Source: Psammoneis japonica (taxonomy: Eukaryota). Taken from it: a DNA stretch of 64,000 bases. The translations under genes were made by a program, and so were the position numbers. Below the pieces are notes generated by a model. The model saw only the letters and a list, made by a program, of their open reading frames with translations. It did not search any database and was not told the DNA's origin. Below, in pieces: positions 1,193 through 64,000 of the stretch. Location: assembly GCA_008632985.1 (NCBI GenBank), contig QPGO01000179.1, forward strand, positions 62,001 through 126,000, written 5' to 3'. Position 1 is the first letter of the stretch. Every line of letters starts with the position of its first letter.

Positions 1193-1584
1193 GATGCACT
1201 CCAGGTCCAGGTGGGACCTGGCACTGCTGAGCTGTGACCTCAACAGTTTTTTGAATCGTGCTGCATGTTGCGCATGTGGATTTCTACGTGACTTTGGCAA
1301 CGTTTTGCTTCATTTTGTGGCACACTTGTCGAGCAATCTGCCCAACAACTTTTGACATTTTTTGTTGCAGCACCACTCTGTGATGTCTCAAGAATTGCAC
1401 GGGGCAGGCAAATTTGCAAAAAGGTCAAGTGGCAAGAGGCACAATTGTGCCACAAACTTGGCCACTCATTTGATGTTGAAGATGAACACATCCATTGATT
1501 AAATTCTTGCACTGTGGAGCTCATGTGCAGAATTCTGTGGGCCCAATGTCACGTGGAGTCCCACCTGCGGGGCTGGAACGTGTC
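1193..1584 (+). mobile_element. ~390-bp MITE, copy A (heavily TpA-converted)
   Basis: Colinear with 10033-10421; degenerate TIRs gatgcactccaggtccaggtgggac / gtcccacctgcggggctggaacgtgtc; flanks actt/actc; only 2 TA left. Confidence 0.9.
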
Positions 1585-2129
1585 ACTCCAGACACCTGTG
1601 AAAGCACATCCACTCAAGTGTTTTGTGCGCAAATGCTGCACACACAAGAGACACATGATTTGCGCTCAAAATTGATTGTTGTTTTGTGCATCACCTGGGG
1701 CTGGAACATGTCTTGGGCATGAAACGAGATGGGCTCATGGGGGTGATTCTCTCCACAACATCTGTGCAAAGATTGGTGCACAGTCTGCACCCGGCTCCCT
1801 TTTCACTGGGGTTTTGCTGCAGGCTGCCAGGGTTGGGGTTGGGGTCAGGGTTGGGGCTTGAGCGGACTGAAGAATTTGCCATGTGTGCAATCAAAAACAG
1901 TTTTGTGTGCTTTGGCATTGGCGACAGAGCATTGCATCAACCATGGCCCCCGGTGCTTGGTCTCACTTCTGGAGTTGGCAGCACAATGTCACAACCTTTC
2001 TTTTGGTCTTTCCCTGGTGCACACAACTGCAGGGTTGTTTGTTGCCTTTGACAAGGATGGAAAAAGCAAAGTGCAAAAGGCTGCCAACAGCGTGGAGCAA
2101 ATTCCTTGAAATGGCAAAGACTCCATGAC

Positions 2130-9289: not shown

Positions 9290-11500
9290 GTCACCACAAC
9301 AGGGTGACATGTGACAGCCAGCAACTGATCATCCATTGGCTCGGCAAGGCACAGATCCATTTCTGAGAGAATCCTCTGGCACAGTTTCCATCCAAAAGCA
9401 GAGAGAGGGTGGCGCACCTTGGGAAGATCACTGCAGGAGGTGTTGGCACTTGGCCAGAACTTGTTGCCTCCACTGAGGTCAACAATCTTCAGTTTGGACA
9501 CATTGGCAATGCAAGCCCATGCAGTCATGCAGTCCATGAGTGACACTGCAATGGCAGCAAGTGTGCCGGCTTGAACTGACATGAAACAATCATGAAGAGG
9601 GCGCAACAAAGCAGCTTTCTCTGCAATGCAGAGCCAGCCCTCCTCCTTCTCAAGAACCTTGCTGTTTGAAGCAGGTCTGTCACCTGCCAACAAAGTGCAA
9701 AGAGTTTGATCTTGTGATGTGACACAAGCAGCTGCTTGCACAGCAGTGACACACCTGCCACTCAAGTGTTGCCAGGCAAAGACACAGCAGTGAGATCCTT
9801 GCGGCTGCCGTGTGCATGCTGAACTGTGACGTCCACAAACTTGTGGTGGCGCACTTTGTTCCTCTTGCCAAACATCCCATCAACTGGCTTCTTGGCTGAA
9901 TTTAGAATCTGCATCGACTCATCAAATGAATCAACCACCACACAGTTCTGTGTCCGCTTGGCAATGCCGGCAGAATGCTTGATGACAAGTTCAATGACAT
10001 GCATCTGCAACAAACGGGACAGCAGCAAACAAGACGCGTTCCAGGTCTAGGTGGGACCTCGTACTACTGAACTGTGACATCGATAGTTTTTTGAATCTCG
10101 TCGTATGTCGCGCACGTAGAATTCTACGTGATTTTTTTATATTTTGTGTCATTTTACGGTACACTTATTGAGCGATCCGTCCAAAAACTTTTGACATTTT
10201 TTGTTACAGCGCGATTCTATAATGTCTTAAGAATCGCGTAGGGCAGGTGCATTTGCAAAAACGTCGAGTGGTAAGAGGCATAATTGTACCACAAACTTGG
10301 CCGTTTATTTGATGTTGAAGATAAATATATCCATTAATTAAATTCTCGTACTACGGACCTCGCACGTAGAATTCTACGGGCCCAATGTCACACGGAGTCC
10401 CACCTAGGGCTGGAACGCGTCACAAGTTAGAGTTGGAACACTGTTGAAACAAGCAGCGCACATTGATGGGCTGCGTGCCTGGCATGTGCCTTTGGTGTCT
10501 TCATCATCTGATGCTGTGACAATGAGGCTGCCAAGAGAAATGGCAGACCAAACAGCACAAGTCGTCCTCTGCAATTCCCAAACAACTGCCTGGCTCCCTT
10601 TTGACAATGTCAGACACAGGCGCTGCTTTGTGAGCAGTGACATCCTCAAGCAGAATGCAGACATGATGATGGGCAAAATTCTCAGGGTCAACAAACGCGA
10701 TGGAAAGTCCGAGCTTGGCTTTGCCATCCTTTCCCCAACAGCCATGCATGACTGAGACAAATGATTTGGGTGCCCCCGTGGCGCGAATGCAGTGAGCACG
10801 GATTTGGTCAAGCATGGCACGAGTCACCTCCACAGCAGCTGCAAAATGACAAAGCATGACATTGTTGTGTCGCACTTGGCCAATTTGATGATCCTTGGTG
10901 TCTTTTAAATCTTTGGCATGATCAATGGCACATGTCATGAGGTTGCAAAACTGCTCACTTCATGCTGCCCGTGCAGAGACATCACTGTCATTGAAGAATG
11001 CAACAACATGGTTCTCATGTTCGTGAATGACCCATGCCTTCTTTTGGCAATGACCTTTGCATTTTGTTGTCAGAGCAGAAGCAGAAGACAATCCTGTGAG
11101 CCCACTCAGTGGAAAAGTTGCTGCCAATGTTGACCCAAATCCAGATGACACATCTGCCATTGTTGGCATGGATGACAGAAGCTTGTGTGTCTTTTTCTGT
11201 TTTCTTTCTTCAAGAAGGATGCTGATTTCAGGATGCTCCTTGTGATTGTTTGTCAAGTGCACCCATGCATTTGCAGTGGCCAGGTTTTTGTTGAGACTGA
11301 CAAGCGCCTGTGCCAAAGGGATGCGTGGGTTCTCAAAGCTCAGCGCACAAATGCATGCATTCTTGCCAGTGTCTTGCATCCTGGAGTGACTTTGTGTCTT
11401 CTTTTGCCCTTCCTGGTCCTCATCAATGAGCTTGCAATGGCGAGCACATTTCCACCATGTCAGATGTTGACTTCTTTCCTGTTGGGGGACCAAGATCCAT
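9290..11500 (-). mobile_element. Degenerate hAT-like transposase interrupted by a MITE
   Basis: N-terminal CICAL..NAWVHL..H (BED-like); SVMHGCWGKDGK..LGLSIAFVDP (D-x-W region); MHVIEL (CxxH region); LPGNT*VAG (TR motif, CGA->TGA). Confidence 0.5.
10033..10421 (+). mobile_element. ~390-bp MITE, copy B (essentially unmutated)
   Basis: TIRs GACGCGTTCCAGGTCTAGGTGGGAC / GTCCCACCTAGGGCTGGAACGCGTC (23/25 match); 4-bp TSD ACAA; internal palindrome CACGTAGAATTCTACGTG; about 31 TA retained. Confidence 0.95.
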
Positions 11501-11759
11501 CACCAACAACTTTTCCTGATTCGCGCGTTGCAGATGAGCATCATCCTGTGCGCAAAACTGCTCTGACAGTTGCTGCATTCATGCCTGGCACTCCCTGCTT
11601 TGCTCATCTTGCTGTTGCTGAGTGGAGGGGGGTTCTGGGTTGTCTGCGCCATTTGGATCCCCATGATTTGAACCGGTTGTCGTTGGTGTTGACATCCCAA
11701 GCGTTGTCACATTGGCTTTGTCATTGTCACGGCAGCACCAACGGACATCGGCGATTGAT

Positions 11760-12529: not shown

Positions 12530-13005
12530 TCAAACATCCATGTCTCAATGTGATGACTGAAAGTTTTGTGCCAGTGTTTTCCTCCACACCTGAAGATTTT
12601 TCTTTTGTTTCTGTCAACAGAAATGTCAAACATTTGTGTCTTGATGTGATGACCAAAACTTTTGTGCCAGTGTTTTCCCCCACACCTGAAGATTTTTCTT
12701 TTTGTTTCTGTCAACAGACATGCCAAACATTCGTGTCTTGATGTGATGACTGAAAGTTTTTGACCATTGTTTGCCTTCACACCTGAAAATGTTTCTTTTG
12801 TTTCCGTCAACAGACATGTCAAACATTCGTGCCTCACTGTGATGACTGAAACTTTTGTGCCAGTGTTTTCCTCCACACCTGTGGATTTTTCTTTTGTTTC
12901 CATCAACAGACATGCCAAACATTCATGTTTTACTGTGATGAATAAAACTTTTGTGCCAGTGTTTTTCTCCACACCTGAAGATTTTTCGTTTGTCTCCGTC
13001 AATGG
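12530..13005. repeat. 96-bp tandem repeat, ~5 units (same family as 11760-12045)
   Basis: The same unit recurs at about 12548, 12644, 12741, 12837 and 12933. Confidence 0.9.
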
Positions 13006-13648
13006 ACACGGTTGTTGGCGCCCCAGACACGAGGAATCTCTTCGAGAATCTTCTTCTTGTGGTGACAAACATGTGCCGGACAAAAACTCTTAATTGCTTC
13101 ATTGTCCCACCAATCAAAGAAGAGAGACTGCACACAGATGTCCAGAAACACCACTGGTTGTGCTCTTGCTTGGTGGCGGCCCCAGCTGCTGTGCACAACT
13201 TGCCGTGTTCTGCAACAAGTTGCCGTGCAGCAGAGCAACCTCCTCTTGTCAAAAGTTTTAAAATGAAAAAGTGCAGGGCCAGGTCTGACGATGAGTCATT
13301 GACAAACGAATGTCAGCTTCCCCAAAGCGCCTCTCTCTAGAGCAGCAGCAGTGAGAGAGTGTGGATGGCATCAGAAAGACGCGGAGACTGGAGAGGAGGT
13401 TGGCGGTCGTGGATTTTGTGGTGGCGGATCAACAGTTTCCCACGCATTTGAGTCTTGTGAACGCAACGTGCTGACACACACACTGAAAGAGGAAAGAGCA
13501 AGCGGCATGCAGCGAGAGGATGACGATGCTTTCGCAGTTCTCCAGCTCGCTGGACGGGAAGCGAAGTACGAAGCAGCTTCTGTTGCCAAAGATCCTCTTG
13601 ATTGTATTGCTTTTCTTTGAAAAAGCCTCTGCACTTGCGTCTGACAAC

Positions 13649-33600: not shown

Positions 33601-34013
33601 ACAGAGAACACCGTTGCCTTGGAATGTTCCACCATTTAGAGAGCATTCTTCTTCTGTCCCCTTGAAACAATAGTTGTTGGATCCTGCTGGTGGGCAGCAA
33701 GCGCCCTTTCGCACAGTTGGCGACGGTGTCGGACTCGGGGTAGGAGAAGGAGTTGGTGACGTCGGGCTCGGCGTAGGACTAGGACTAGGAGGTGGTGTTG
33801 GGCTCTGGGTAGGAGATGGAGTTGGCAGCGGCGTAGGACTCGGGTAGGCGCAGGAGTTGAAGACTGCGTAGGAGCATGTAGTGGCGAAGTCGTAGGAGGA
33901 GGAGGAGTGGCTTGTGTCGGTGCAGGGGTGGGCGCTCCTGTTGGCTCTGGTGTTGGCTTGAGCACTGTTGGAGCTGGTGTAGCCTAGCCGGTGGGTTTGG
34001 AGATGGCGACGGC
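30662..34013 (-). repeat. Three near-identical tandem 1094-bp units encoding a frameshifted Pro/Thr-rich protein with Cys-rich GACC modules
   Basis: Unit starts at 30662, 31756, 32850 and 33942; PTPAPT/PTPSPT linkers with GACC...C...GGTF.G.G..C modules; the frame shifts within every unit. Confidence 0.9.
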
Positions 34014-45229: not shown

Positions 45230-47112
45230 CTTGAAGATAGATACAGTGATAGTAGTCGTAGGAGTAGGAACCGAAAGCAACAACAACGCGAGATTATGAT
45301 TGTGTTCAGCAATGGCGGCGCTGTCGCTGCAAAGCACACAAACGGTCGGAGTTGTTTGGGTGCAAGACTAGATGGTCTTGGGAGGCGCTTCGTAAGAGTG
45401 GGTATTGGACGGAGTAGCCCAAAATAGTCCGAACGGAAAAAAATTGGAGGGAAAATCTGTTGCCTCTCCTATGTAATTTCCGTTGGTTCGCATTGAAATG
45501 ATTCAAATTGAATCGGATAATTCCTCCACACGACCAATCTGAGTTTGAACGGACTTATGAGACGCCGAGTATCAGACGAGGAAGGGCAAATTTTTCCGAA
45601 CGGAAAGAAAATGGAGGGAAATCTCTAAGAGATTGAGCACTCCGAAGATGCGATCAAAATGCAAATTGTCCTGCGGACGTATGTCGACGTAGCTGCGGTA
45701 GACGGAGCAACCCAGACTCAAACATTTATGAGGTCTTGTTTTGAAACGAAATACTTGAATATGTGTATGTAAATTGAGTATGAGATAATAAGAGAGATTT
45801 GTTTGTGTGGATGACGCAGAATCATCTAAACACAAGCGAACATAAAATTATTCAGATCATAGTTGATCAATAGAAAAATTTTGGTGGAACCGCCAAAACG
45901 GTCAAACATATAAATATCAAAAGAAATGAATAAAATAATGTTTGATGAAAACCCCTCATGGCGGTGCGCGCGTACGTACCGCACGTACGTGGAATCGTCG
46001 TCCGTCGTGCGCTACTATCGCTCGCGCGGTGACACTCCAAGAGCACGGCCGCCCACAAGATATCCTCTTATTGTGCTTGGCCCATCGTCTTGGCTACATA
46101 CTTCTACAAGTAAAACGAATGTCATGAATGAAGGACACTCATGTTGTAAAGCTTTAACGGGCCGGCTCACGATTGTGTGAAACATGTTAAACAAAACGTT
46201 TGGAGTAACTTTGTTGGGCGATGACTATTTTGGAAGGCTAAAGGACAAACCATCAAGTCCCATTTTGCCGTCGATTTGTCCAACCGCGAGAAGGAGCACG
46301 GTTTGACCTACACCATTGGATGAGTCGACGGCATCACGCAAGATCGACTTTGTAAGAAGGTGCGCAAGCACAAGAAGATGCAGAAACGTCTGCAGCATGA
46401 GAGACGTCTAGAAGCTTCACTGGGAACGACCATCCAAGACTTTCAACAACCTCACTTTAGATCAATTGAATCCCGCTATTTTGTCATTCCATCCTACCCA
46501 TCCGTTGACAACAACCAATCAAATCATTCCATCTAGCCACATTCCCATTAAAAAAAAACAATCACCACCTTTGAGGGCAGGCGAACCCTAACTAACAGAG
46601 ATTCGGGTCATAGCACGTCGAGTGGCACCCCCTTCCTTGGAGATGCCACTCTCAGTCTCACCGGGGAACCACCCCTTGGCTCTCGTAGGCCGTCTTGCAG
46701 AAAAAAAACCGAGGCGCTGCTGCAGTCAGCCACCTCGATGGTTGCTCGTAATTGTTAGAGGCGAGAGCAACCTCGTCTACCCTTGATATCGGGACTTTTC
46801 CCAAAAGTGGTAGAACAAGAGAGAAGGTTCTCCAATGGAATAGCGAAGGTAACGACTTGCGTGTAGTGCTGTGTGGCACGATGGAGTTACCAAGTTAAGT
46901 TTTGTAACCCAGCAAACAGCAACTGTCCCATGGTTCCGACATGTCGTACTTGTTGGTAGGAATTGAAAGGACTCTCTTGTCCATTCTAAAGAATGGGACA
47001 CCCACAATGAGTCCGACAAACAATCTTGCTTACCGTGCTCGTGCAACACACAGTAATATTCACAGAGGCTGCCTTTTTTACTTGACGGGAGCTTCTTCAC
47101 GGCCCAACTAGG

Positions 47113-48461: not shown

Positions 48462-51400
48462 GCACGTGACGTCAACATTGCACACCACGCAGCGCCGGAC
48501 ATCGGGATTCCATCTCAGGATTCCCTTTCAAGTGGCTTCGCTGCAAACCACGCTCGAGAAGAACAACCACAACAACAACAGCACCGCCGTCGTTGTCGGC
48601 GTCGTCAGCCTGTTCTGCATTGCATCATAACGACCGGTCCAAAATGCCGAGTGCCCCTGTTGTCAATTCCACAGAGCCACTCTTGGGATGGCTGCAATGG
48701 GGGCTTCCAATGAGCTCACCTCTGACGCTTTTGCTCAGCAGTCAAGATTGGTGCGTGGCATGCACGATGACCTTGGCGACAAAGACTGCAACACGAAGAA
48801 AGCAATGAAGGTGTAAGTTTTAATTAAACCCTTGTCACACCTGCATTTTGATGATGTGTTTTAATTAAAGTTTTTGTCTGACCCCCCCCCCTGTTTCAAC
48901 CAAATTGTTCTGGCAGACATGAGAGCCAGTTCTGCGCAATGTGCGACCACAAGCATGCCTCATTGGGAGACACCAAGCGTTTGATTGATGAGCAAAAAGC
49001 CTTCATTCACCTGTTCCATTGTGCCTTTTGCCCACAAAAGAAGAGGGGCAGGGCAAACAAGGGAGAGACCAGGCCAATCTTTGATGCGGAGCTGTTTGAA
49101 AGGGTGATGGCCAGCAATCCCTTGACTGATGCAGTGGACATTCCAAACGAGACTGAATTGCTTGACCAGATGGAAGCTGGTGTCAGTGAACCCAACAAGC
49201 TGTGCCAGTGGGATGTCATCAACCAGGCTTGTGCATCTCTCAGACGACTCTTTGTTTGTCAACTTGAAACGCACGGCAGAAATCCTGCTGTGTTGCTTCG
49301 TTGTGAAAATTCCAGCCACATCAAACATCTTAAGAGGCTTGTCAAGTCCAGGAAAGCACAAGAGAAATGGAAACGGATGGATGAGAAGGCGAGTCTTAAT
49401 TGAGGTGTGTTTCGAAGTTTTGTTTGAAACCGCTGACCTGTGCTGTGTTGTCCACCTCAAACCCGGTCAGGTTTCTGGCGACGTGTCACCCTGCCTGGCC
49501 CATGAGCGTTTCCCAGAGTTGGAGGAGGGTTGCTGGGAACATTCTTCTGGGACATTGCTGAATGGAACAGGCCTGCCTGATGCTCATCATGCAGATGTTC
49601 ACAGGCAAAACCAATGGTGAAAGCACGCTTTTTGGCCATGTCATGCGACACAGAGATGTGAGAATGGACTCCATTGGTGCATTGGGTCTTTATCTGCTCG
49701 GTGCGCATCCAACCATGTCTGATTGTTTTTGCTTTACAAAACGTTTTAATTGAACAAACTGTTGCTGCAATCCTTTTGAACACAGGATGCTTTGAGATCA
49801 GCAAGGAATGGGAGAAGATTGATCTCAAATGGAAGGAAACATGGTGGAACATCAAGCTCCTTGTGGATGTTCATGAGGCTGGCACATCCTCTGGAGACAG
49901 TGCCGATTCACCCAACACGCAGCGCATGTCTCAATCATCTTACACTGCTTGGTTTGATCATTTGAAAGAACGGCTTGACCTGCTCATCAACTGCAGTTTG
50001 CACTTTGGACGTGTTGGAGGCACAGTTGAGTTAGAGTTGGAGGAGCTGGAGTCTCATCTCATTGAAGCTCTTGGAAATTGGGACCCAAGTGTGTTTGATG
50101 CTTGCTGCTCCACAAAGCTGCCCTTGAAGGTGAGTCGTTGCACTTGTGGTGTGGCCCGTTTCACTTTTAATTAAAACTCACATTTTGTTTCAACCAAACA
50201 TTTCCAGGCAATGAGGGTTGCAGCTGGCTTTGCAAAGGAGCCTGGAACCCACTTTGTTTCGCGTGCCCTCTGTCAGCCTTCAGATGAATTGCAGAAGGAG
50301 ATCTTTCCTTGGCTGGAAGGCATGGCGGAAGGAGTGAATTGCCGGGAGCACCCCACGGCACATGCCTTTGTTGGACTCTTGAAACAGTTGCGTGTTGTCA
50401 TCCTCCAAGATGTGGCTGCGTTGATGCTGCTGGGCCGCACCCACGCCTTGTTTGAGCTTCCTGTTTTCATGTCAGCTGGATTTTTGTCATTTAAGGATCA
50501 AATGAAGGTTTGCTTGGAAAAGGCACCCCCTTGCCCTGATGCTGGAGAGATCCGTGGGGTCTCGGAGCAGATTCAAAACTTGCACCAGGACAACCGATGC
50601 AGCCACCAGGAGTTGTTGTCCGCAGTCAATGGGTCCATTGACTGCCATGGAATGATGATGAACAATTTTGCCTTTGCCATTAGAAATTTGCTGCGTGCAG
50701 CTGGAAACGAGTTCAATGATTTGACCCTGGAGCGGTCTCCTCCACTGACTGGGCAGCCATCACAGCAGTCAGCAATTGGTGAGTGCTGAGTGTCATGCTG
50801 TTTTGATTGAACATCATTTTAAATGTTGTTTCAATTGAACATTGTTGTGACGAATTTGCATGTTTTGTTGAAATCATTTGCAGCCAAAGGCATGGTGCCA
50901 GCAGCAGGTGCACAGTCTCCCAGCACACAGTCTCCCAGTGCACAGTCTCCCAGCCCCGGTGTGATTGGCTTTCGACCCCCCAAGTCAAAGGACACAGATT
51001 TGGTTCAGATGTTTGACTTCTTTGAGGGAAATGCTCCTCCTTTCACTTCTGGCAATGGAGCCAGGCATTTGGAGGAGGACACATCATGGCATTCAGCATG
51101 GGAGGAGAAGGACAAAAGGGCCCTTCGTGTTGGAAGCAGCTGATGGACATTGTGAACAAAGTGCCAGTTGAGAACTCAGCACACCCTCAAGTTCCAGTCA
51201 TTGCCAAGTTGAGTGCTTTTTGTGTCAAAGATTGCAACAAGGCATTGACAACAGCTTTGAAGAAGTTCCCTGAACAACAGCGGCACTTCGCTTGCCCTTG
51301 CCCGCCTTGGCGCTGCTTGCAGCAGTGCCAGTGGCAGTGCTTTTGCTGCCCTTGCCCTTGCCAGCCTTGGCACTGCTTGCAGCAGCACTGGTGGCAGCAC

Positions 51401-52282
51401 CCTTGCCCTTCCCAGCCTTGGCGCTGCTTGCAGCAGCACTGGTGGCAGTGTTTTTGCCGCCCTTGCCCTTGCCAGCCTTGGCACTGCTTGCAGCAGCGCC
51501 AGCGGCAGTGTTTTTGCCGCCCTTGCCCTTGCCAGCCTTGGCGCTGCTTGCAGCAGTGCCAGTGGCAGCATTTTTGCCACCCTTGCCCTTGCCAGCCTTG
51601 GCGCTGCTTGCAGCAGCACCAGTGGCAGCATTTTTGCCTCCCTTGCCCTTGCCAGCCTTGGCACTGCTTGCAGCAGCACCAGTGGCAACATTTTTGCCGC
51701 CCTTGCCCTTGTCAGCCTTGGCACTGCTTGCAGCAGCAAAGGCGGTGGTGTTTTTGCCACCCTTGCCCTTGCCAGCCTTGGCGGAATCCTTGTTGGCCTT
51801 GAGGGGTGTGGCATTGCGGGCGCTCTTCCTTGTGGGCTCAACGGCAGCATTGACAGGGGTGGCCTTCCTCTGTGCACGCAGAGAGAGCAAAGGTTTTAAT
51901 TAAAGAAGATTCACTTAAAACAGGTCACCGGGCATTTCATTTAAAACAGGTCACCGCGCTTGTGTCACCACGTGACACAAGCAAGACAGGAAACAGACCG
52001 GCCCAATTAAGACGGACACACACACAACAGACACACCTTGCCGTCCGGCTTGTTGCTGCCATCAGGAGCAGCACCCGTCATCGTGGAGTCCCTTGGTGCT
52101 TCTTCAGAACTCTCTTTTTCTTTTGACAGGTGTGGTCCGGTGTTGGCAGAGGGCGACAACAAGAGAGATGGTGAGAGGGAGGTGATGTTGTGTCTTTGAT
52201 GGTTTGATTGGTGTGAGCATTGGATGCACGAGAACAGAATCTTCAAGTCGTGGTTGCGTGGGCGCACGATGACGTCACGTGC
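48462..52282 (+). mobile_element. Crypton-like tyrosine-recombinase element (Ndc10 domain II-like), intron-containing, TpA-converted
   Basis: GKTN..RHRDV..IGALGLYLL; HFGR..LGNW..FDACCSTKLP (expected catalytic Tyr is Cys); AMRVAAGF..IFPWLE..AFVGLLKQLRVVILQD; introns such as 50130-50207; inverted repeat gcacgtgacgtca at 48462 and 52270-52282. Confidence 0.75.
51292..51781 (-). repeat. 60-bp minisatellite (~8 units) encoding a Lys/Ala/Gly repeat on the minus strand
   Basis: Unit ccttgcccttgccagccttggc.ctgcttgcagcag..; translates as AAASSAKAGKGKGGKNAATG repeats in ORF 51225-51890. Confidence 0.9.
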
Positions 52283-55200
52283 AATGAAATGCTGTCTGCG
52301 CGGAGGGGGTGTTGTTCAGTCAGACGGGCCAGTCCGGACTGGGGCGCGCAGTGCCCACGTGGGAAGTGCACCGGACTGAACCGGTCCACACAGTGGGGGG
52401 TGATAAAACAACTGACATCATTTGCAGCACTCAGTTTATGAGGCAATTTAAAGAGTCATGACACATTGCCCCTTTGTCATTTTAATCAAGCCAGTCAAAC
52501 ACAGCTTCAAACTGCAGTTGTGCAGCACGCACGGAGACGACAGATCTTGTGGCACAAATGTCACCAGTCTAACACAAGCAACAAGGACAGCGAACATAGA
52601 AAATGTGAGGGCATTCCAAGCAGAAAGAATTGCCATTGTCAGCTGTTGCTTGTTTCCTGTCTCTTTGTTGTCACTTCTTCTTTTGCAGCGCGGCTGCTTC
52701 GCGCTTGTCTCACCTGCTTCCTTCCTGCCACACCATGCTGCACACATTGATCAAAGCATTTTGCTTTTCAACTTCTGCACAAAGTGTTCTGAGTTGGCAG
52801 TGCAAGAGACCAAGCTCTTGCAGTTGGGAGCCAGCCAGCACAGCTGCTGCTCTTTGTGCCTTGGAAGAGCAGCAGTGCGGCTGGCCGCGCATGTGATCAT
52901 GATGTGCACTCTTGAGCCACCACCTGATGCCAAGGCCACACAAAGTTGGATTGCTTTTCTTCGTGCAGCTTCTTGACGTTGCTCATGCCATCCTCACAAA
53001 TGCAAGTCTTCATTTTCTCTCACAAAAGCAAGCGCCTTCATTTTCTTGCCCTGCTTGTGTTGCTTCTGCTGCTGCTCCTGGCTGCTGCCCTCCTTGTGCT
53101 GCTGTCAAATCATGATGTGCTGGAGATCATTTTTGACCACCTCAGAGGCTGCACACCTGCGAACTTCTGCTGTTTTTAATTTCTTTGTTGTTGCTCTGAC
53201 TGACCACTGCTCCAATGCACAGAGCTGCTTTCTGCTTTCTGCGGCTGCTCTTGCTCATGATCTTGATGCTTCTGCAAAGCAGCAGCACTGTGCTGGAAGC
53301 TTTGCACCAGAGCTGGAAAGATGATGATTTCCCAGCTCTGTGAAGAGTTCATGGAGCTTGTGCTTGTGCTCTCATTTGACAGAAGCAGCACACCGCAACA
53401 GAGAAACATCTTCAGCAAGCTTTGGCCCTTTCACGCAGTGCTTGGAGATTCAGTGACAAGCACTGAAGAAGCAGCAGTTTTTTGTGAGGCAGCTCTTAAC
53501 AACAGCTGGGTTGCACCCCAAAACAGTGCTGACAACACTTTGCAGGGTGCTGCTTGGTCATGGAAAACATGCAAGAATTCTTGGCTGGCCTGCAGGGGCA
53601 GCAATGTGCTCTTGCTGGGTTGTGCTGCAGAGCATCTGAGCTGCGTGCTTTTGGCACCCAAAACAGTTTCACAGTTTTCCTTTTTGGCATTTTGTTCATC
53701 ACTTCTGCCTGTTTCTTCAAGAGGGAGAGCACACAGAGCTCTCTGCAACAAGAGCCGGCATGTGGCGCCACCCTGACATCTTTTGCTCTGCCTCCCTGCA
53801 GCCGTTGGCACTGTGGCTGGACACACCGCTTCTTCACAAACTCCTTGTCTGTGCACCACAATTTGCTTCACAAATTGTTGTTCCTTGTCCTTGAGTGCAG
53901 CTGCCTTTGGTGATGGTGCTTGTGAAAAATCATCAGCTCACCCAGCTTTAAAATCCACACTGCTTCTTTTGTGCTGTGGTTGGTGCCTCACAGGCAACTG
54001 TGTGCATCCTTGAGCGGCCGCCCTGGCCAAGACTTTGCTTGTGTCATCATCACAAAAAATGAGCCTTGAAAGATCATTTCTCTGGCCACCTCAGAGCAAT
54101 GCTGCACCTTTCCAAGCTTTTTGCCAACACAAAATGCCTGGATTTTGTTGTTTCTGGCTGTTCCTCTTTTCTTTTTTTGTTGCTCTGGCTGCTTGCTGCT
54201 CCAATGCACAGAGTTCTGCCTTTGATGATGGGTGCTTGTGCAGTTGTCAGTTCTCCACACTTTGACATCTGGGTTCCTTTTGCAAGCTGATGACTCTTGC
54301 TTCACTCAAGTCAAGTCAATCAAAACCTGCTGCCCACACCAGGTGAAAAAGTGCCAACTCAACACAGACACTGATCAAAGAAACTCCCTGATGCCACAAC
54401 CAAATGACTCATTCTCACAAGATGACAAGCACATCACCCCCATGCTGTGAGAAAAAGATGACTGCTGCGCTGCCCACCATTTGACTTTTGCACACAAACC
54501 ATCCTCCAGGAGATGAATGTTTCAATGACGTGTGCATCAAGTTGGGTCAAGTCAGAATTGAACAGAGGATGACAAAGACCCACAACCTTTTCTGCCCTTT
54601 GTTTCAGGGTTTTCTCAAAAGTGACAAGTTGCAGATTAAAAAAAGAAGAGTGCTCGCCATCTTTGGACCACTCCTTGCATCATTCAATGTTGGCATCTGC
54701 TTGAGCCAACCCACACAACATGATGTGGTGCATTTGAGCCACCCTGTTTGACATGATGGTGTCAAATGCATCCACCACACATGTGATGTGATGTCAACTT
54801 GAGCCACCTCACATGATGCAGCATTTTCCCACAGAAATGTGGACAAAGATTGAAGCAAAACAAGAAGTTGAGATGACAAAAGAATGCATTTGATCAGCAG
54901 ACAGTCCACCACTGTTGCAAATGCTGGGTGCCAACCTGCATGCACTCACTGAGAATGTGAGAATGAAGAACACAATGTGAGCTCAGAGAACATTTTCATT
55001 GGCTCTCATTGTGAGTCAGATTTTGGGTTGACAACAGCAGTTCCAATGGTGTCAGCACATTGTCAACAATGCTCATTTTCAGCAGCGACAGCCATGATCA
55101 CTGACATTCTAGTGTTGATGTTGTTGCGATCTCATTTGCAGACTGTTTCTGCATCAAACAAGCCCTTCGGGGGAGGGGTGCTGACCACGGCAAATGTGCT

Positions 55201-55817
55201 GTTTTGGTGCAGGGGTCTGCGCAGTGGTGCAGCGTGTGTGTGGGGAGGTTGGTGGATGGAAGGCGGGGGAAGAGGGTGGTGGCTGGCTGGCAATGCGGTG
55301 TGTGTGAGTTGTGGGCATGGTGGTGCGCAGGTGATGGGGTGTGGGGTGTTCGTGCAGGGTGTTGGTGTGTGGATTTTTTGTGCAGGGTGTTGGTGTGTGG
55401 ATTTGCGTGATGGAGTGTGGATTTGCATGAGTGGTGAGTGTCGCAGCATGCAGTGGGGCAATCTTCTTTTGACATGTCACAAGGGCCATTGCATGAGCTC
55501 CCAGCCCCCCTCACAACTCTCACACAAGTCGACAAAGGAGCAGCAAAAACCATTGCAGTTCACTGTCATTTCTTTCCAGCATCTTGTCAATGGTCAAGAT
55601 CCATGCTTCTGCAGCCCCACATGTTGTGCTGCAGCAGAGTCATTTAACACATCAGGAGGGCAATTTTGCACATGGTCCCAACCCTGTCACAACTCTCACA
55701 TGTTGATGCCACATGTGTCCTGCATTGCAATGTACAAACTGACATCACAACCTGGATGACCTGCACCAACCTGCTGCGCTGCTGCAACAGATCTTGGCAC
55801 TTGGTCACTCACTTCGC

Positions 55818-55873
55818 TCACTCACTCACTCACTCACTCACTCACTCACTCACTCACTCACTCACTCACTCAC
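55818..55873. repeat. (CACT)n microsatellite, ~14 units
   Basis: Direct reading of the sequence. Confidence 0.95.
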
Positions 55874-56308
55874 CAACTGACTCACTTGCTTGCCAACTTG
55901 CTCTCAAAAGCAAAACACTTTCATGTCACTTGCCCAGGGTGGTCAGTGAAACATGTGACAAAGGATTCAACTTGCAGTGCAGACTGAAGATGCAGAATCA
56001 TCAGACTTTCCTCCAGGTGGTCCCTGGTGTGAAACTCACGCAGGTGTTGAGTGATGCATTGGAGAATTTGTGGTGCCATGCATTGCGCGTTGCTGGCATG
56101 GTGAGTGGGGAGAACAAGGCAGTGTTGGGAAAATTTGCAAACCTGATGGCTGACAGATGTGGCAAGAATTTGGTGAGAATCTCCGCGGCACTGCAACACT
56201 GTGACTTGACTGATTGCTGTCAGACAAGATGATGACTGCAACTGTGACTGTTCACCGCAGCCTGCACTGTTTCTTTGAAATGACTTTGACTGCGACTTTA
56301 GTTGCCCC

Positions 56309-56698
56309 GACGCGTTCCAGGTCCAGGTGGGACCTCGCACTGCTGAACCCTGTGACATCGACAGTTTTGTGAATCACGTCGTATGTCGCACACGTAGATT
56401 TCTACGTGATTTTTTCGACATTTTGTGTCATTTTACGGCACACTTGTTGAGCGATCCGTCCAACATTTTTTGACATTTTTTGTTACAGCGCAATTCTACA
56501 ATGTCTTAAGAATCGCGTGGGGCAGGCGCATTTGCAAAAATGTCAAGTGGCGATGGGCACAATTGCACCACAAACTTGGCCGTTCATTTGACATTGACTG
56601 CAAATGTGTCCATTGATTAAATTCTCGCACTGCGGAGCTCGCACGTAGAATTCTGCGGGCCCAATGTCACACACGGAGTCCCACCCAGGACTGGAACC
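56309..56698 (+). mobile_element. MITE copy D (partly converted); right TIR split by the Gypsy insertion and completed at 62360-62368
   Basis: gacgcgttccaggtccaggtgggac...gtcccacccaggactggaacc|Gypsy|gaacccgtc; TSD CCCC/CCCC; about 9 TA left. Confidence 0.92.
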
Positions 56699-56885
56699 TG
56701 CAAGATCCAGCTTGAGATGACTTGACAAAAGTTGTGGGAGAACCAAGAAGAGACCCGATCAGCACAATCGCTGATCAGAGAACTGACTTCCAATGGCTTC
56801 CTGAATGTCTGGTGCGTCAGTCAACACACACATCATGTCAGAGAGGGCACACTTGGTCATAAAGTGCATGCGCCCATCTCATTCA
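56699..56885 (-). repeat. 3' LTR
   Basis: Direct repeat of 62176-62359; adjacent to the PPT. Confidence 0.95.
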
Positions 56886-56992
56886 CTCTTCCCCTCCATG
56901 GTGCAAGGAACACGCACACCATTGGAACCACTTGACTAAAATTCAAACCCAATGCGCACGGAGAAGGGAACCCAGACATTGGGAAGAAACCC

Positions 56993-59900
56993 TCAACTCC
57001 GATGCGGCACCATGCGGCGAATGTTAATTTGCTCAATGACGTGTGGTGCTCGCAGTGCTGAAACAGTCCCGTTGGCGTGGACTTGTGAAATTCGAAACGG
57101 GCCACAGGCTTGTTCTTCCAACTTTGAAGGATCCACCGACTTGACCAATGCATCTTGACCAACCAGATGATCGCAGGAGTGGCGCTTCGCATTCTGGCGT
57201 CGCAGATTCTCGTCGACCAATGCTTGTTGGTTGGCTTGCATTGCAGCAAGGCCGGAGATGACTGGTGAGTCCAAAATCACATCACCAGAGCTCCACTTGA
57301 AACACCCACAGACCTTGAGTGGGAGCATCGCAAAGCACAAGAGGCTGTGGCAAGGGTGTCGTCCACAATCTGCTCAGCCTGTTGAACATTTAAAGGTGGG
57401 TTGGCGACAACCACAGTGCGCATGATGTTGGCTGTTGTCTGGTGCATTCGTTCACAAATGGAGTTGGCTGCAGGATTTCAAGACGTTGTTGGCGCATCAG
57501 CAACACCTGCTTGATTTGGTGGCATTTGGAACTCCCAACCAATGAATTCTCCACCATTGTCATGGATGCATCGATTCGGTCTGGGACAACGAGCTGGCCA
57601 AAGGTTGCGAAACTTGTCAGTCACATGCTGAGAAGTTTTGTTGTAAGTGCGCACGAGTTCAGTCAATCCAGTGACAGTGTCAATGCAAGTGAGAGCGCTG
57701 AATTCAATCTCTTGGTCTTGAATCGGCATTTTCCACGGTCCAATGAGATCAGCCACTGCTTCTGTCCATGGAGCCAAAGGTGCTTGACGTTGAGGCAATT
57801 CTCCACATCCAGGACCCAGTTGTTTAAATCGTTGACATGCATCGCAAACAAATTTGTTGCAACGTCGACGCAATGCAGGATGACACACATGAGTCCGAAT
57901 GCTTTCATGCAATCGCACGACTCCACAATGGCCCAATGCGCGATGGTGCCATGCAATGGCATCTGGCAACAACGCAGCAGGAATGCAAATTTTCCAGGCT
58001 CCAGGCGGATCATTCAGATGCAAACGATGACAAATCAGGGGGCGACGATTCACAATCTCAGCCACGAACTGCTGCGGATTTTGTTGTCTTTGCTGGCTCA
58101 GTTGAAGATCTTCGAACTGGAGCTGTTGTGTCCTCAGTGTCTCAGCAGGATTTGGCATTTCATCCAGCGTTGGGCAATTCAAAAAGCACTCAAACAGTTC
58201 AGGCTCATCAAGCAGAGAGAAAAAGGAGGTGTGAGACTCATCAGAAGGATCAACCGGAGCACGGCAACACTTGAACCTGCAAGCACCCAACTCCAAATCG
58301 TCCTCTTCCTCGGCTTTGTTCAGTTCCTTGGAATCCAACTTTTTAAAATGAATGATTTTTCCTTTGCATTTGCTGCTTGGCCCAAGGCTCTTCCCCTTCG
58401 AAGGCGGATCCATGTGCGGGAGTCAAGAAAAACAATCGGTGAGCACGCTGTCCTTGCCTTCAACATGCTTAAAGGCAGGCACGAAATCTTCGAGGAACAG
58501 TCGCCAATGAAGGACGCGCTGCATGTTCAAAGTGCGAAAGGTGAGATTTTTGTGATCAGCATGAACAGTGACATCAGCACCAAGCAACATGGAGCAAAAT
58601 TCCTTGAAGCACATGACGATGGCCAGGAGTTCTTTTTCCATTGTTGAGCAATTTCGTTGAGCCGCCGAGAGCTTCTTAGACCAATGCGCCACAGGTTTGC
58701 CATCTTGAACAATGGCGGCGCCCATCTGGCAGTCTGATGCATCGGTGCAGACATGGAATGGCAGGTTGTGGTTAGGATGGGCCATCAATGCTTCTGCCGC
58801 AATTGCTGCCTTCATCTCCTTGAGTGCTTTCTGGCATGATTCTGTCCATTGGAACTGACTCTTGCCTGTCAATTCAGTCAGAGGTGCAAGCAGGTGAGAA
58901 CAGCGAGGCCACACAGTGCGACAACAGGTCACTGCACTGAGAAATGACCGGAGCTGAGCAGTGTCCCGCGGAGGTTGCATTCGCAGGATCGCCTTGACCT
59001 TCTTTTTCCACGGTTCAATTCCAGTTGGAGTGAGCCAATGCCCTGGAAAATTGGTTTCTTGAACACACCACTCGCATTTCAACGGGTTGACTTTCAAGCC
59101 ATTCTCCTCAAGATGATGCAACACCTTGTCAAGACAAGAGAGATGGCAATCAAAGTCAGCATCAAATGCGCCAACATCATCAATGTGAGTTTCAACATCC
59201 AAACCATGTGGGATCTTTTCAATGATGGACTGAGCAATGTCTGGAGCTGGCTTCAATCCCACAGCCATGCGACAATGCTGGAACTTCCTGCACGGAGTTG
59301 CAATCGTAGCGAGCTCCTTGCTTTCATCGTCCAATTCCAAATTGCCACAGAACATCATGAGATCTAATTTTGTGAAGAACTTGCAGCCCACTCTCCACTG
59401 CAGCACATCTTGAACAACTGGCAGAGGATGCACTTTTCGTTTAAGGACCTTGTTGAGCTCTCAAAAATCGGACACCCATCGCACTCGGCCGTCCTTCTTC
59501 GGAGTGACAAAGGCACCGGCTGCCCATTCCGCAGGCCCACATGGTCGAAGTGCACCGAGATTCACCAAATGCTTCAATTCCTTTTTGAATGATTCTTCAT
59601 TGACTCGAGCAACAGGAAACGGTTTTGAGTGATGTGGAACAGCATTTTCATCCACTTCGAGGTGCACCTTTTCATGAGGACAGTGCCCCAAAGTTCCGTC
59701 AAACAAGGTTGAATGTTTTTCCAATGCCGCCAACAGCTTCTTCGTTTGCTCCTCCATGAGATGATCCAAGTTCCGAACCACTTCTGCTGGATCCGTTGCT
59801 TCGTGCTTGGCGTCGAGCACATGGTTGTCATGTCCATCATCGCATCCACAGTCCAACTCGTCTTCACAATCTTCATCAAATTCATCTATTCGACCTAAAG

Positions 59901-60462
59901 CCACGTGCCAATTGCAGGATTTGGACCAATGACGAGGTTCCTTCATTGGGATCACACGGTCCAGCCATCGCAGTGTCCTTGTTTCACAGTTCAGGTTGAG
60001 ACCAATCTTGTCCAAGAAATCTCGACCCAAAATGATGTCATGCACACACGGAGCATCAAATGCATGAGCCACACAGCTGTCAATCCTCCTGGCTTTGTCA
60101 AATTCCGGCAACACGATGTTGCTCAAGGCTGCCCAATGACCTGATTGGAAAGGACCTGCCACAGTTTGAAAAGCTTGGACTCCATGTTCGTCAACAGATG
60201 GCGCGGCTCTTCGAGGCAAATCTTGGGACAAAATCACAGTGTGAGAACCACCCGAATCAAACAAAACACGCATCACACGATTTGACTCATGCCGTTGCAT
60301 TGATTTTGCAACAAGCAGTGCAGATGGAACCAGTGCAGTGCGCGAGACTTGCGAACTCATTTTTGGGAGAGGAATGTTGCATTTGAGTGCATCTTGATCA
60401 AACACATCCCCCTCTTCATTCACGCAATTTTCTGCAGTGTTTTCAAATTCAACAGGTGACAA
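56993..60462 (-). pseudogene. pol: Gypsy pol (protease, RT, RNase H, integrase)
   Basis: LFDSGGSH; ETHIDD; CTDASDCQMGA; EKELLA; DHKNL; ADLIGPW; HDNGGEFIG; three in-frame TGA stops (59461, 58423, 57478) at expected Arg (CGA) positions. Confidence 0.93.
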
Positions 60463-60638
60463 TTCATCAGGATTTTCAAAACAATCAAAAGCAAAACATT
60501 CATCATTTCATTCAGGCAAAACACAATCATTTCCTTCAACAAATGCTTCTCTCACAGGCAGTTGGGAGTGCTCAGCTCCGGAGCATTCAGCTCCTTCTTC
60601 TCAGAACTGCCAAGGAAACTGCCCATCTGGCTGAAACC

Positions 60639-61871
60639 TCACCACACCTCCACAACGTGGAGGGGGCCTCGTCCGATCACATCGAAATGGTGCACATCAC
60701 CACGAGGAGCTTCTTGAGCCTGGTTGTCATTGTTCACATTGTCTGCTTGAGCAGCACATCCGTCGGCCTGTCCTTGGCCTCCACGGTTGTTGTTTTCATT
60801 GCGACAATGTTGACCACCACCTTGGTTGCCATTGTCACTTTGATTTCCGTTGTTGTTGTTGTTGCGATGGGCACCACGACCTCCTTGGTTCTGGTTGCCA
60901 TGACCACCAAAGCATCCACCGCCTCCACGGCCTTGGCCACGGACTCCTTGGAAACGACCTCCGCCTCGACCTCCACCGCCATGGCCTCCTCCTCGACCGC
61001 CACGGTTTTGAGGCCCATGATGGTTGGGGTTGTTTGGATTGTCATGACATTGGCCCCACGTGTGCCTTCCATGGTGCCATGGGACCGGACATGGATCACC
61101 TGCCTTCAGTTGGCCCTTGCCATCCTTCTTGTCACGGTTCCCCTTTTCATCACTGGAGCTCCCTCCATTGCCATTGCTGGACTTGCGCTTCTTGTCATCT
61201 TGACCATCGGCAAACACCTTCTTGTTGCTCATGCAGGCTTGGACATCCACCACAGAATCCGCAACAAGGTTCTTGCCCGCACGAATGCAGGGCTGCTGCC
61301 AGGTCAAAGGGAAGGCACAAAAGATGATGTTCTTCTGCTCCTGCTCTGCAAGTGCAGGAACGGCACCAGGCAGATGGTTGGCACAACGAAACAACGTCTC
61401 CATGCGATCAATGTGAGTTTCAGATTCCGCTGAGTGAGGCTTTTTGCAAGCAGGCAAATGCATCTTCATCGTGTCACGAGCTGTCGGTTTCACGCAGCGC
61501 AGATGACAGGATGAGATGGCCTGATCAAATTGAGCTGCCATCCGTTGGTTCTGTGGAATGCCCGCGGCAATGTTCTGCCATTTTGCCTCCGCAGTTCCTT
61601 GGAGACAATCCTCGAAAGCATCAAACAACTCTGTTCCGGCATCATAATTCAGCTGTCTTGCCACCTTCCGGAACCTGTCCTCCACGTGCAACAATGATTC
61701 AATTCCATGCTCTCCTGTGAAAATGGGACACATTTTTGAAAGTTTAGCACCATCAATGAAGGTTTGAGTGAGCTTCACTTCCTGTGGCTCAGAATCCACG
61801 AATTTGGTTTTACACTCAATGCATGCTTTCTCCAAGGCTTCTTGACACATGGCGATGCACAATTTCAGCAA
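60639..61871 (-). pseudogene. gag: Gypsy gag-like ORF
   Basis: Upstream of pol; CPVPWHHGRHTWGQC knuckle-like motif; Gly/Asn/Arg-rich tail. Confidence 0.75.
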
Positions 61872-62175
61872 TCAAACAATCAACAATCCACAAGACAAAC
61901 GAAATGAAATGTTCCCAATTGATCCACACCATGAGAACAATCAACAACCAAACAACAACAAATTCAAGAACAGCAATGCGAGACTCGAGGTCGAACAAAC
62001 GCTGCTCCGAATCGCCAATTTCACGAGCACAATTGCGCTGTGGTTCTGATTGACTTCAAATGAAATTTTCTGCATGAGCTCGCAAACAAATTTTCTCTCT
62101 TCTCGACAACACTCTTTGCGTTGTCACAAAGTTGACAATGCAGTGAACAAGCCATGACAACGACTGTGATTACAG

Positions 62176-62359
62176 TGCAAGATCTGGCTTGAGATGACTT
62201 GACAAATGTTGTGGGAGAACCAAGAAGAGACCCAATCAGCGCAATCGCTGATCGGGGAACTGACTTCTGATGGCTTCCTGAATGTCTGATGCGTCAGTCA
62301 ACACACACACATCAGAGAGGGCACACTTGGTCACAAAGCACATGTGCCTGTCTCATTCA
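62176..62359 (-). repeat. 5' LTR
   Basis: Direct repeat of 56699-56885. Confidence 0.95.
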
Positions 62360-62869
62360 GAACCCGTCCCCCATGAAATGACTTGTTGGTTGACTGTCAA
62401 TGACTGTCAACATGACTGATGACTGCTTCAACTCACACACAATTGTTCTTGGAGCAAGCTTGCAGAATTTTGCAAAAAAAACACCGGCGTCTTTGATCTT
62501 CCATCAATGCATCAGGATGACAAATTGGTTCGAAAGTCAATGTTTTAGTTGTCAGCCTCAATTGATGAAGAACAAGCACTGCTCAAATTGGGTGCAGTGC
62601 ATCTGTGTTCAAAAAGAAGATTGGTGCTGCAATTTTTGTGACACCTGCATTGAAAGAAGATTGACATCATCACAGCTTTTGTTTGAGAGCCATGGCTGTG
62701 CATCACAAGGCTGTTCATGCACAGCTGTTGCCAGAGCAGTTGCTTGACACCACAAAAAGGGCATGACAAGAGCCCCCAAGCTGACAGGGAAAGATTTCGG
62801 TGAGTGCACCAACCAAATCAAAAATCCTCCACAGCCAAAGGAGACCATGAAGACACTTGCAAGGCTCTG

Positions 62870-63200
62870 CCCTGGCTCAGCTGTGGCTCCATGTCACAGC
62901 TGAGCCAGGGTCAGAGTGAGCCTTAAACTCCCAAATTCTGCTGCAGAAGGACACTGTGAATGCCCCCACCAGCCAAACAACTGCTGTCAAAAGGCGCTGA
63001 CTTTCTTTGGTGGACCCCAGACAACATTTGAAGAAAGCCACCCTGGCTCAGCTGTGGCTCCATGCCACAGCTGAGCCAGGGTCAGGGCGAGCCTTGAATT
63101 CCCAAATTCTGCTGCAGAAGGACACCATGGATGCCCCCACCAACAAAGCAGCTGCTGTCAAAAGGCATTTGGTGCCTTTGGCAGATCCCAGGCAACACTT
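62870..63200. repeat. 171-bp tandem duplication, each unit starting with a GC-rich hairpin
   Basis: ccctggctcagctgtggc-tccat-gccacagctgagccaggg at 63041-63081, with a one-mismatch copy at 62870-62910. Confidence 0.85.
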
Positions 63201-63518
63201 TAAATGAGAAACATGGTTGGGAGTTGAAATGCTGCCCTCACTTGGCTGTGGCTCCATGTCACTTCACACCACTGTTGAAGGGTGAGCCAATGTGTTCCAG
63301 CTGCACGCGAACCGCACATGAACCAAAATGTGCACAAAAACAACATTTGTGCAATTTTTGCGTGGTCTCTGACTTGCAAACAAGCTTTCACCACCAAAAG
63401 CACAGATTTGTTTAAATTTTGGCATTTTTTGTCATTGTTTTGGTGCAGTCAATTTTTTTTTCATTGCAGAGGGCTGGCTGCATGGATGACAACAACAAAC
63501 AAGAGAGCATCGCTCCAA

Positions 63519-63863
63519 GACGCGTTCCAGGTCTAGGTGGGGCCTCGCACTGCTGAACTGTGACATCGACAGTTTTTTGAATCGCGTCGCATGTCGCGCA
63601 CGCACATTTCTACGTGATTTTGGCGAAATTTTGCATCATTTTGTGGTGCAATTGTCAGGCGATCCATTCAACAACTTTTGACATTTTTTTCTTCTGCACC
63701 ATTCTCGAGTGTCTTGAGAACGGCGCAGGGCAGGCGCATTGTCCAAAACTGCAAGTGCAAACAGAGACTCATGTGCTGCAAACTTGGCCGTTCATTTTGT
63801 GTCGAAGACAAACATGTCCATTGACCAGAGTGCAAAAAGTCCCACCTGGGGCTGGAACCCATC
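63519..63863 (+). mobile_element. MITE copy E (internally shortened)
   Basis: gacgcgttccaggtctaggtggg...gtcccacctggggctggaacccatc; TSD CCAA/CCAA; 2 TA left. Confidence 0.9.
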
Positions 63864-64000
63864 CCAAAACCAAATGCAAAAATTGGGAGGACCCACAAAA
63901 GAAGGCACCTGTTTGTGAGACGGCATTCCCCTCCCCTTTGTCACTTCACCTTTTGTGTGCATTCGTCTTCTCACACATCCACATTTTGTCCTGTTGTTTC

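Follow-up and report, generated by a model that had tools for sequence, protein, structure and literature searches.

The Gypsy element and its diatom relatives

The DNA analysed here, called the window below, is a stretch of 64,000 nucleotides from the diatom Psammoneis japonica (GenBank assembly GCA_008632985.1, contig QPGO01000179.1, positions 62,001 to 126,000 of the forward strand), and its last part carries, on the minus strand, a Ty3/Gypsy retrotransposon that lacks nearly all tyrosine in pol along with nearly all TpA dinucleotides. The two long terminal repeats (LTRs) of the element agree at 166 of 184 aligned positions (90%), and its insertion point lies inside the right terminal inverted repeat of a repeat resembling a miniature inverted-repeat transposable element (MITE), copy C of the list further below. 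The parts of the element, with their open reading frames (ORFs), are as follows.

62176..62359, minus strand: 5' LTR with TG...CA ends, pairing with 56699-56885
56699..56885, minus strand: 3' LTR with TG...CA ends, pairing with 62176-62359
56694..56698 and 62360-62364: target-site duplication GAACC, 5 bp, read directly in the sequence
60639..61871, minus strand: gag-like ORF, 410 aa, 1 Tyr, in a frame other than that of pol
59461..60507, minus strand: pol protease segment, 348 aa, 0 Tyr, weak RVP match, ending at TGA 59461-59463
58423..59460, minus strand: reverse transcriptase (RT)/RNase H ORF, 345 aa, 0 Tyr, Pfam RVT_1, RT_RNaseH_2 and RT_RNaseH, ending at TGA 58423-58425
57277..58422, minus strand: integrase (H2C2 zinc finger and core), Pfam Integrase_H2C2, split by TGA 57478-57480
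56993..57373, minus strand: C-terminal part of the integrase, 0 Tyr, in a different frame (frameshift), resembling the C-termini of relatives as judged by eye

Pol is made up of four stop-to-stop ORFs that share one minus-strand frame (59461-60507, 58423-59460, 57478-58422 and 57277-57477) and are parted by single TGA codons at 59461-59463, 58423-58425 and 57478-57480. Along the minus strand the Pfam matches run RVP, RVT_1, RT_RNaseH_2/RT_RNaseH and Integrase_H2C2, i.e., protease, RT, RNase H and integrase, which is the order found in diatom Ty3/Gypsy elements; the RVP match is weak (20.1 bits, below the cut-off of 20.7), and the gag-like ORF has no Pfam match. Full-length relatives align over pol residues 54-1075, identity to Tyr-bearing relatives amounts to 45-66%, and all of the named relatives come from diatoms (Fistulifera solaris, Cylindrotheca closterium, Nitzschia inconspicua, Epithemia clementina and Ditylum brightwellii). 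The ThiC ORF of the window is 88-93% identical to the ThiC of diatoms, namely Nitzschia, Thalassiosira, Cyclotella and Phaeodactylum. Unlike its diatom relatives, the copy in the window has HIDD for the active-site motif YxDD, three premature TGAs, a frameshift in the C-terminal part of the integrase and a single tyrosine in pol. Because of HIDD, the three in-frame TGAs and the frameshift it is not a functional element, and homology identifies it as a dead Ty3/Gypsy LTR retrotransposon of a diatom, a member of the group by descent and without activity.

Loss of tyrosine and of TpA

Read through its stops, which are written as X, pol extends over 1076 positions; of its 1073 residues, 1 is Tyr, 51 are His and 51 are Cys. 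Two Tyr codons survive in the whole element, at 57643-57645 (integrase part, TTAC context) and at 61644-61646 (gag), and both are preceded by T. The first-pass annotation of this DNA had described the RT/RNase H ORF as 336 aa long and free of tyrosine; the absence of tyrosine holds, and the length has to be corrected to 345 codons from stop to stop.

For a comparison with intact proteins, the pol query (P0001) was aligned with 52 Tyr-bearing relatives, and the columns with at least 50% Tyr (n = 25) were taken. In these columns the Gypsy copy shows His 10 times, Cys 11, Phe 2, Gly 1, Trp 1 and Tyr not once, and the count of Y-to-H and Y-to-C changes that the annotation had proposed thus comes to 10 + 11 of 25. 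Intact relatives do not share these residues, in line with that annotation: of their cells in the same columns 73% are Tyr, 12% Phe, 4.2% His and 0.9% Cys, and no single relative falls below a Tyr retention of 0.42. Control columns are kept in the Gypsy copy (Trp 12/12, Gly 23/25). All six motifs that had been quoted as lacking their tyrosines are present, five on Tyr-majority columns and AHWS on a Phe/Tyr column. The RT active site reads HIDD (59176-59187, pol residue 441), where 36 of 42 relatives have Tyr; Tyr stands in 25/41 and 39/41 relatives at the two positions of CC (residues 528/529), in 35/43 at AHPN (residue 577), in 25/43 and 24/43 at CTDASDC (residues 587 and 593) and in 37/38 at NCST (residue 620), and at AHWS (residue 608) the relatives have Phe 25 times and Tyr 19 times.

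His and Cys are about equally frequent at the Tyr columns, which means T>C as well as A>G on the coding strand; TpA was therefore hit on both strands, as the mixture of the two outcomes had led the annotation to propose. Along pol, the His and Cys outcomes form 10 runs in 21 sites against about 11.5 expected and so give no hint of long tracts on a single strand. In a comparison with the closest intact relatives (55-66% identity), the replacements seen most often are Y>C, Y>H, I>V, T>A, V>A, I>T and M>V, each of which, judged from the aligned sequences, is an A:T>G:C change as expected from TpA loss within or across codons. That the tyrosines went with the TA dinucleotides, another claim of the annotation, accords with these replacements and with a TpA observed/expected ratio of 0.06 over 38 kb. 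Four blocks of the window are erased in this way.

48600..64000, no strand: TpA-erased block with the Gypsy element (TA counts per 200 bp, dinucleotide odds)
1-10000, no strand: TpA-erased block (TA counts per 200 bp, dinucleotide odds)
10430-13400, no strand: TpA-erased block, back to normal by 13600 (TA counts per 200 bp)
About 17600/17800-27600, no strand: TpA-erased block (TA counts per 200 bp)

The block edges are sharp beside genes and are resolved within 200 bp. Dinucleotide observed/expected ratios were compared between the erased blocks (38,173 bp) and the gene blocks (25,202 bp), which hold ThiC, a 2-oxoglutarate oxygenase and a leucine-rich-repeat ORF at TpA near 0.63. TA drops from 0.63 in the gene blocks to 0.06 in the erased blocks, CA rises from 1.18 to 1.72 and TG from 1.14 to 1.74, CG drops from 0.92 to 0.42, and the other non-CpG dinucleotides of the erased blocks stay at 0.85-1.29; the change is restricted to these blocks and, apart from CpG, specific to TpA. 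CA (4218) and TG (4031) are nearly balanced there, some 1-kb windows have zero TA, and the Gypsy element (56699-62359) retains 19 TA, where 1000 shuffles averaged 364 and never gave fewer than 320. Over the 64 one-kb windows, TpA odds rise and fall with CpG odds (Spearman 0.81). GC content is about equal in erased and gene blocks (0.487 vs 0.488), which indicates, by rough arithmetic, that the GC gained through TA loss about balances the GC lost through CpG decay.

The three nonsense codons of pol belong to that second, slower process, CpG decay. The TGA at 59461-59463 stands where 35 of 38 relatives have Arg, that at 58423-58425 where 40 of 41 have Arg, and that at 57478-57480 where 17 of 29 have Lys and 7 Arg. 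At position 57480, moreover, the letter of CGA stands in 20 of 20 contigs that a DNA run yields for related copies, and the letter of the window in none, so that a CGA>TGA origin is shown directly for this stop and is well supported for all three, as the annotation had stated for three separate events. Arg-majority columns point the same way, 8 of 25 having a CpG-transition-type change (H 3, C 2, stop 2, Q 1). TpA loss itself removes TAA and TAG and cannot create a stop, so frames stay open: TAA and TAG fall to 2.07 and 0.89 per kb in the erased blocks from 9.68 and 12.1 in the gene blocks, and this scarcity results in long ORFs in all frames. Two long antisense ORFs, at 57394-58647 (plus strand, 417 aa) opposite the integrase and at 60387-61433 (plus strand, 348 aa) opposite gag, are probably spurious because TAA and TAG have been erased.

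It follows logically from TpA loss that tyrosine recombinases and HUH nucleases would necessarily be destroyed as well. At 49662-50786 (plus strand) two ORFs in the same frame are split by a single stop, and the second matches NDC10_II (E 1e-10), a fold related to Crypton tyrosine recombinases. The first contains 1 Tyr and the second, NDC10_II-like one 0, which fits the expectation for a tyrosine recombinase. Also within an erased block lies a 569-aa ORF (6166-7872, plus strand) with two Pfam HA (helicase-associated) domain matches and 0 Tyr; with it, erasure extends to a coding sequence outside the retroelements, which would be a captured gene or else a host gene present in several copies.

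Tyrosine-poor relatives are found in public records too. A full HMMER search returned 150 representative pol relatives, 147 of which have 2-5% Tyr and three less than 0.5%, and of 120 RT/RNase H relatives 6 fall below 1.5% (median 4.15%). Seven predicted proteins in NCBI, ENA, JGI and Logan records (P0014, P0055, P0069, P0377, P0315, P0386 and P0308) correspond to fragments of Gypsy pol in which Tyr makes up 0-1.1% and His and Cys are raised; at 32 Tyr of the intact relative P0004 (69% identical), P0014 has His 16, Cys 12, Phe 3 and Val 1. These seven proteins are likely to be translations of TpA-erased DNA in other assemblies. Five metagenome loci of relatives have ordinary TpA (0.45-0.71) and serve as intact comparators, with no further erased cases among them.

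In the DNA run, contigs match 349-1057 bases of erased sequence at 54400-54748, 54941-55803, 55924-56336 and 62304-63360, each with 0-2 differences. Over the Gypsy element the word depths add up to about 1,760-3,070, i.e., 20-60x that of single contigs on neighbouring unique stretches (43-116), a figure that is not a copy number and gives a hint of many related copies. Within a gene block, at 46655-46987, two contigs of the run differ from the window by 0 and 31 in about 335 bases and may represent divergent haplotypes or a paralogue.

Direction, timing and neighbour bases

A MITE-like repeat of about 390 bp with terminal inverted repeats, which occurs in four copies in the window, allowed the direction of change to be read.

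10033..10423, plus strand: MITE-like copy B, the reference, 31 TA and 28 CG, an unmutated island in an erased block
1200..1586, plus strand: MITE-like copy A, erased, 2 TA and 9 CG
56309..56700, plus strand: MITE-like copy C, partly erased, 9 TA
63493..63824, plus strand: MITE-like copy D, erased, 2 TA

Of the 31 sites where copy B has TA, 20 carry CA or TG in copy C, 26 in copy A and 18 in copy D, and several sites differ among the copies (e.g., TA/TG/CA, CA/CA/TG and TG/CA/TG). Since the outcomes differ among copies, TA is the ancestral state, and each copy was hit separately and in place. The repeat looks like a DNA transposon and has been hit like the Gypsy element, which supports action at the level of DNA. 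The terminal inverted repeats of copy B are perfect, and ACAA may be duplicated on either side of it; in the DNA run, word depth summed over the family amounts to 54,000-87,000, and the family is suggested to be abundant and perhaps currently mobile.

The LTRs provide the timing. They differ at 18 of 184 positions; 5 dinucleotides that are CA in one LTR and TG in the other account for 10 of these, a TA/CA site for 1, changes of CpG type for 4 and changes of other kinds for 3. LTRs are identical at integration, and their present CA/TG discordance means that erasure postdates integration and acts on DNA. With about 95% of TA lost against 3/184 differences that are neither TpA nor CpG, erasure would, as a rough inference, have been far faster than ordinary substitution.

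The bases next to the dinucleotide affect its fate. Among the 143 surviving TAs of the erased blocks, 54 lie in TTAA, whose survival relative to gene-block frequencies is 0.79; survival is 0.22-0.27 for CTAA/TTAG and 0-0.02 for ATAT, ATAC, GTAT and GTAC, with 0 survivors against 100 expected for ATAT. In a model that treats the two strands separately and lets the target A be hit at a rate set by its 3' neighbour, rate x time is 0.14 for A, 1.22 for G, 2.03 for C and 2.72 for T; the model fits all 16 contexts, with a likelihood ratio of 226 (3 degrees of freedom) over a single rate. The outcomes lean in the same manner. At the Tyr columns of pol a 5' purine goes with His 7 and Cys 2 and a 5' pyrimidine with His 3 and Cys 9 (Fisher p=0.03), and in the MITE copies, which may share some ancestry, a 5' purine goes with CA 26 and TG 10 and a 5' pyrimidine with CA 8 and TG 20 (p=0.0009). 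Thus the data fit a target T-A-pyrimidine (T-A-Y) on either strand, and Tyr codons, being T-A-Y and hence the best substrate context, were wiped out. Among nCA/nTG trinucleotides, the gain of TCA in erased over gene blocks (+8.2 per kb) is above the prediction of this rule and is too strongly confounded by CpG decay and ancestral composition to count for or against it.

Tandem arrays occur in erased blocks at 11668-13106 and 51227-51817, with 96-bp and 60-bp units that are 63-93% identical. In a gene block, 30662-34012 consists of three tandem copies of a 1094-bp unit, 99% identical and with normal TpA (0.64-0.74); this unit has a strong G skew and long minus-strand ORFs without a Pfam match.

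Mechanism, alternatives and known systems

We consider it probable that silenced mobile DNA in the window was hypermutated where it lies, at the level of DNA, by A:T>G:C changes directed at TpA. The Gypsy element would have entered with a normal TA content and then been mutated where it sits, by a process that acts on DNA and turns TpA into CpA or TpG on either strand. This process would be limited to silenced repeat DNA, whose affected blocks end sharply beside genes and bear CpG decay too; T-A-Y codons, as its best context, would go from Tyr to His or Cys, the active-site Tyr of RT included, and the slower CpG>TpG decay of CGA codons would have given rise to the three stops. By analogy with the alga Bigelowiella natans, discussed below, we infer an enzyme-driven genome defence of the same kind.

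Other origins of the pattern appear far less convincing. ADARs prefer a 5' U and a 3' G and hyperedit repeat-derived double-stranded RNA. A likeness to such editing is remarked in a preprint on B. natans (10.64898/2026.01.13.699255), and ADAR-like A-to-I editing of double-stranded retrotransposon RNA before integration, fixed by reverse transcription, was tried and rejected as very improbable here: the two LTRs with different outcomes at 5 CA/TG sites place the changes after integration, sense-strand editing gives Tyr>Cys alone where we count His 10 vs Cys 11, MITE-like copies and inter-element sequence are erased alike across contiguous blocks, and on the 3' side T and C are favoured, not G. 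A sequencing or assembly artefact, e.g., systematic miscalls at modified TpA in heterochromatin, seems even less credible; the runs that hold the window are of unrecorded library type and may be the assembly's own source, which favours the idea, yet erased stretches recur with 0-2 differences in k-mer contigs at word depth 43-67, reading frames are preserved across more than 1000 codons, the sites have turned cleanly into CA or TG, CpG is depleted and not created, and Tyr-free relatives occur in other NCBI, ENA, JGI and Logan protein records. To ordinary decay or selection, i.e., TpA being under-represented in general and CpG decaying through methylation in old repeats, we give just as little credence. 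Gene-block TpA is indeed already 0.63 and the repeats do show CpG decay, but a TpA of 0.06 with zero TA in some 1-kb windows is far outside the gene-block value, 19 TA are left in the element vs 230-364 expected although the LTRs have 3/184 other-type differences, MITE copies and the sequence between elements are erased too, the pol frame is already broken, and intact metagenome relatives have TpA of 0.45-0.71.

The main alternative chemistry is modification of thymine, with the same process and targeting: T in R-T-A (R, purine) would be oxidised to 5-hydroxymethyl- or 5-formyl-uracil by a dioxygenase of TET/JBP type, or adenine would be N6-methylated at TpA and then deaminated, and mispairing would lead to T>C. 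TpA and TpC are the preferred sites of 5-hydroxymethyluracil in dinoflagellate DNA, and thymine that has been oxidised mispairs with G. The signature is strand-symmetric and the neighbour rule can equally be written as R-T-A, so from sequence alone one cannot tell which base of the T:A pair was attacked. We nevertheless hold thymine chemistry to be rather unlikely: tRNA adenosine deaminase has the substrate context U33-A34-C35, which the T-A-Y preference resembles, and the only experimental precedent puts adenine deamination forward as a proposal. This match of a U-A-C context with T-A-Y is also what makes a relative of the tRNA-A34 deaminase attractive, and an adenine deaminase of that type (TadA/ADAT2) is our candidate enzyme, put forward tentatively and at less than even chances. 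More speculative again, and on balance less likely than not, is the full scenario of a diatom 'inverse RIP' (RIP, repeat-induced point mutation), in which a chromatin-directed DNA adenine deaminase derived from the tRNA-A34 deaminase, with a T-A-Y preference mirroring U33-A34-C35, would episodically erase TpA from newly silenced transposons and invading DNA, spare TTAA, and disable its targets purely by missense changes, which would also strike the catalytic Tyr in reverse transcriptases and in recombinases; Bigelowiella would share this system, which would hence be old within SAR (stramenopiles, alveolates and rhizarians).

Several points weigh against hypermutation in place, or at least against its simplest form, among them the origin of the DNA run just mentioned. 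The intact MITE copy B sits within an erased block, and erasure has gone less far in copy C than in the Gypsy element inserted in its end, although copy C is the older of the two; the process is therefore not simply regional and continuous. Such unevenness suggests episodic or element-directed action. The near-identical tandem repeats at 30662-34012 keep normal TA, and hence duplication alone is not the trigger. CA/TG discordance by itself could stem from ancestral CpG, and the high mutation rate is deduced from saturation. As to the neighbour rule, the expected tetranucleotide counts were taken from gene blocks, from which the ancestral repeat composition may differ; the model underpredicts His after 5' G and after 5' T, which makes the fit of the outcome ratios qualitative; and one TTAA site of copy B is mutated in copies A and D.

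This signature was previously known from one 2026 preprint on one unrelated alga, B. natans, and the diatom case appears to be new; our literature search, whose coverage left most subscription journals outside, found no diatom report of TpA-only A:T>G:C hypermutation. According to that preprint, 231 of 302 new nuclear single-nucleotide mutations in mutation-accumulation lines of B. natans fell in two integrated viral regions, where all but one were A>G or T>C and every such transition was on TpA; hypermutation occurred in some lines only, the genome has 124 TpA-depleted clusters, RT and DDE domains are enriched among TpA-depleted coding sequences, and an ADAT2-like DNA adenine deaminase is proposed as a candidate (Mettrop et al., bioRxiv 10.64898/2026.01.13.699255). 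The two cases share change at TpA only, to TpG or CpA by strand; restriction to foreign or repeat DNA with other DNA normal (here, the gene blocks of the window); a long-term trace of reduced TpA and raised CpA+TpG that is clustered and, there, RT/DDE-enriched; and an episodic appearance, in some lines there and with the intact MITE copy B in an erased block here. Unlike the B. natans case, a chlorarachniophyte (rhizarian) with giant-virus and virophage inserts as targets, ours concerns a diatom (stramenopile) in which an LTR retrotransposon, MITE-like repeats and whole repeat nests are targeted, erasure is near saturation, with TpA at 0.06 vs 0.45 in their nucleocytoplasmic large DNA virus (NCLDV) region, and this erasure coincides with CpG decay. 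The neighbour-base rule (T-A-Y >> T-A-A, TTAA spared) and the loss of tyrosine are seen here; the main text of the preprint, the part to which this statement applies, makes no mention of TTAA, context, trinucleotide, tyrosine or diatom (10.64898/2026.01.13.699255).

Two better known kinds of hypermutation offer partial parallels with the window. RIP of ascomycete fungi changes CpA to TpA, with a rise in AT content and TA and with new stop codons. Like RIP, the present process is a dinucleotide-specific transition hypermutation of repeats in place that inactivates transposons and changes composition block by block, with cytosine methylation alongside. Unlike RIP, which is its functional analogue, it has the opposite polarity, creates no stops and leaves GC about unchanged, and the untouched near-identical tandem repeats in the gene block leave a pure duplication trigger unsupported; fungal RIP, with its CpA>TpA change and TpA excess, was rejected as a candidate on a TpA of 0.06 and CpA/TpG of 1.7. 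In animals, ADAR hyperediting and APOBEC editing act on RNA or reverse-transcription intermediates and mark one strand, before or during integration. With these the window shares deaminase-type transition clusters in mobile elements, and with ADAR the preference for a 5' U, whereas here both strands of resident DNA were hit after integration.

These findings have practical as well as biological consequences. Erased DNA is almost without TAA and TAG, and the resulting long spurious ORFs in six frames mislead ORF-based gene calling; Tyr-free 'proteins' from such regions are already in public collections, where they can lead gene prediction and family alignments astray. For the base-editing field, a natural DNA enzyme for context-defined A>G would, if true, be of interest. 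The neighbour rule, by which T-A-pyrimidine is hit and TTAA spared, is testable in vitro and usable for screening other genomes, and knock-outs in those diatoms that are genetically tractable could be used to look for the enzyme. The near-saturated signature in diatom transposons suggests that the system is widespread in this major group of marine primary producers.

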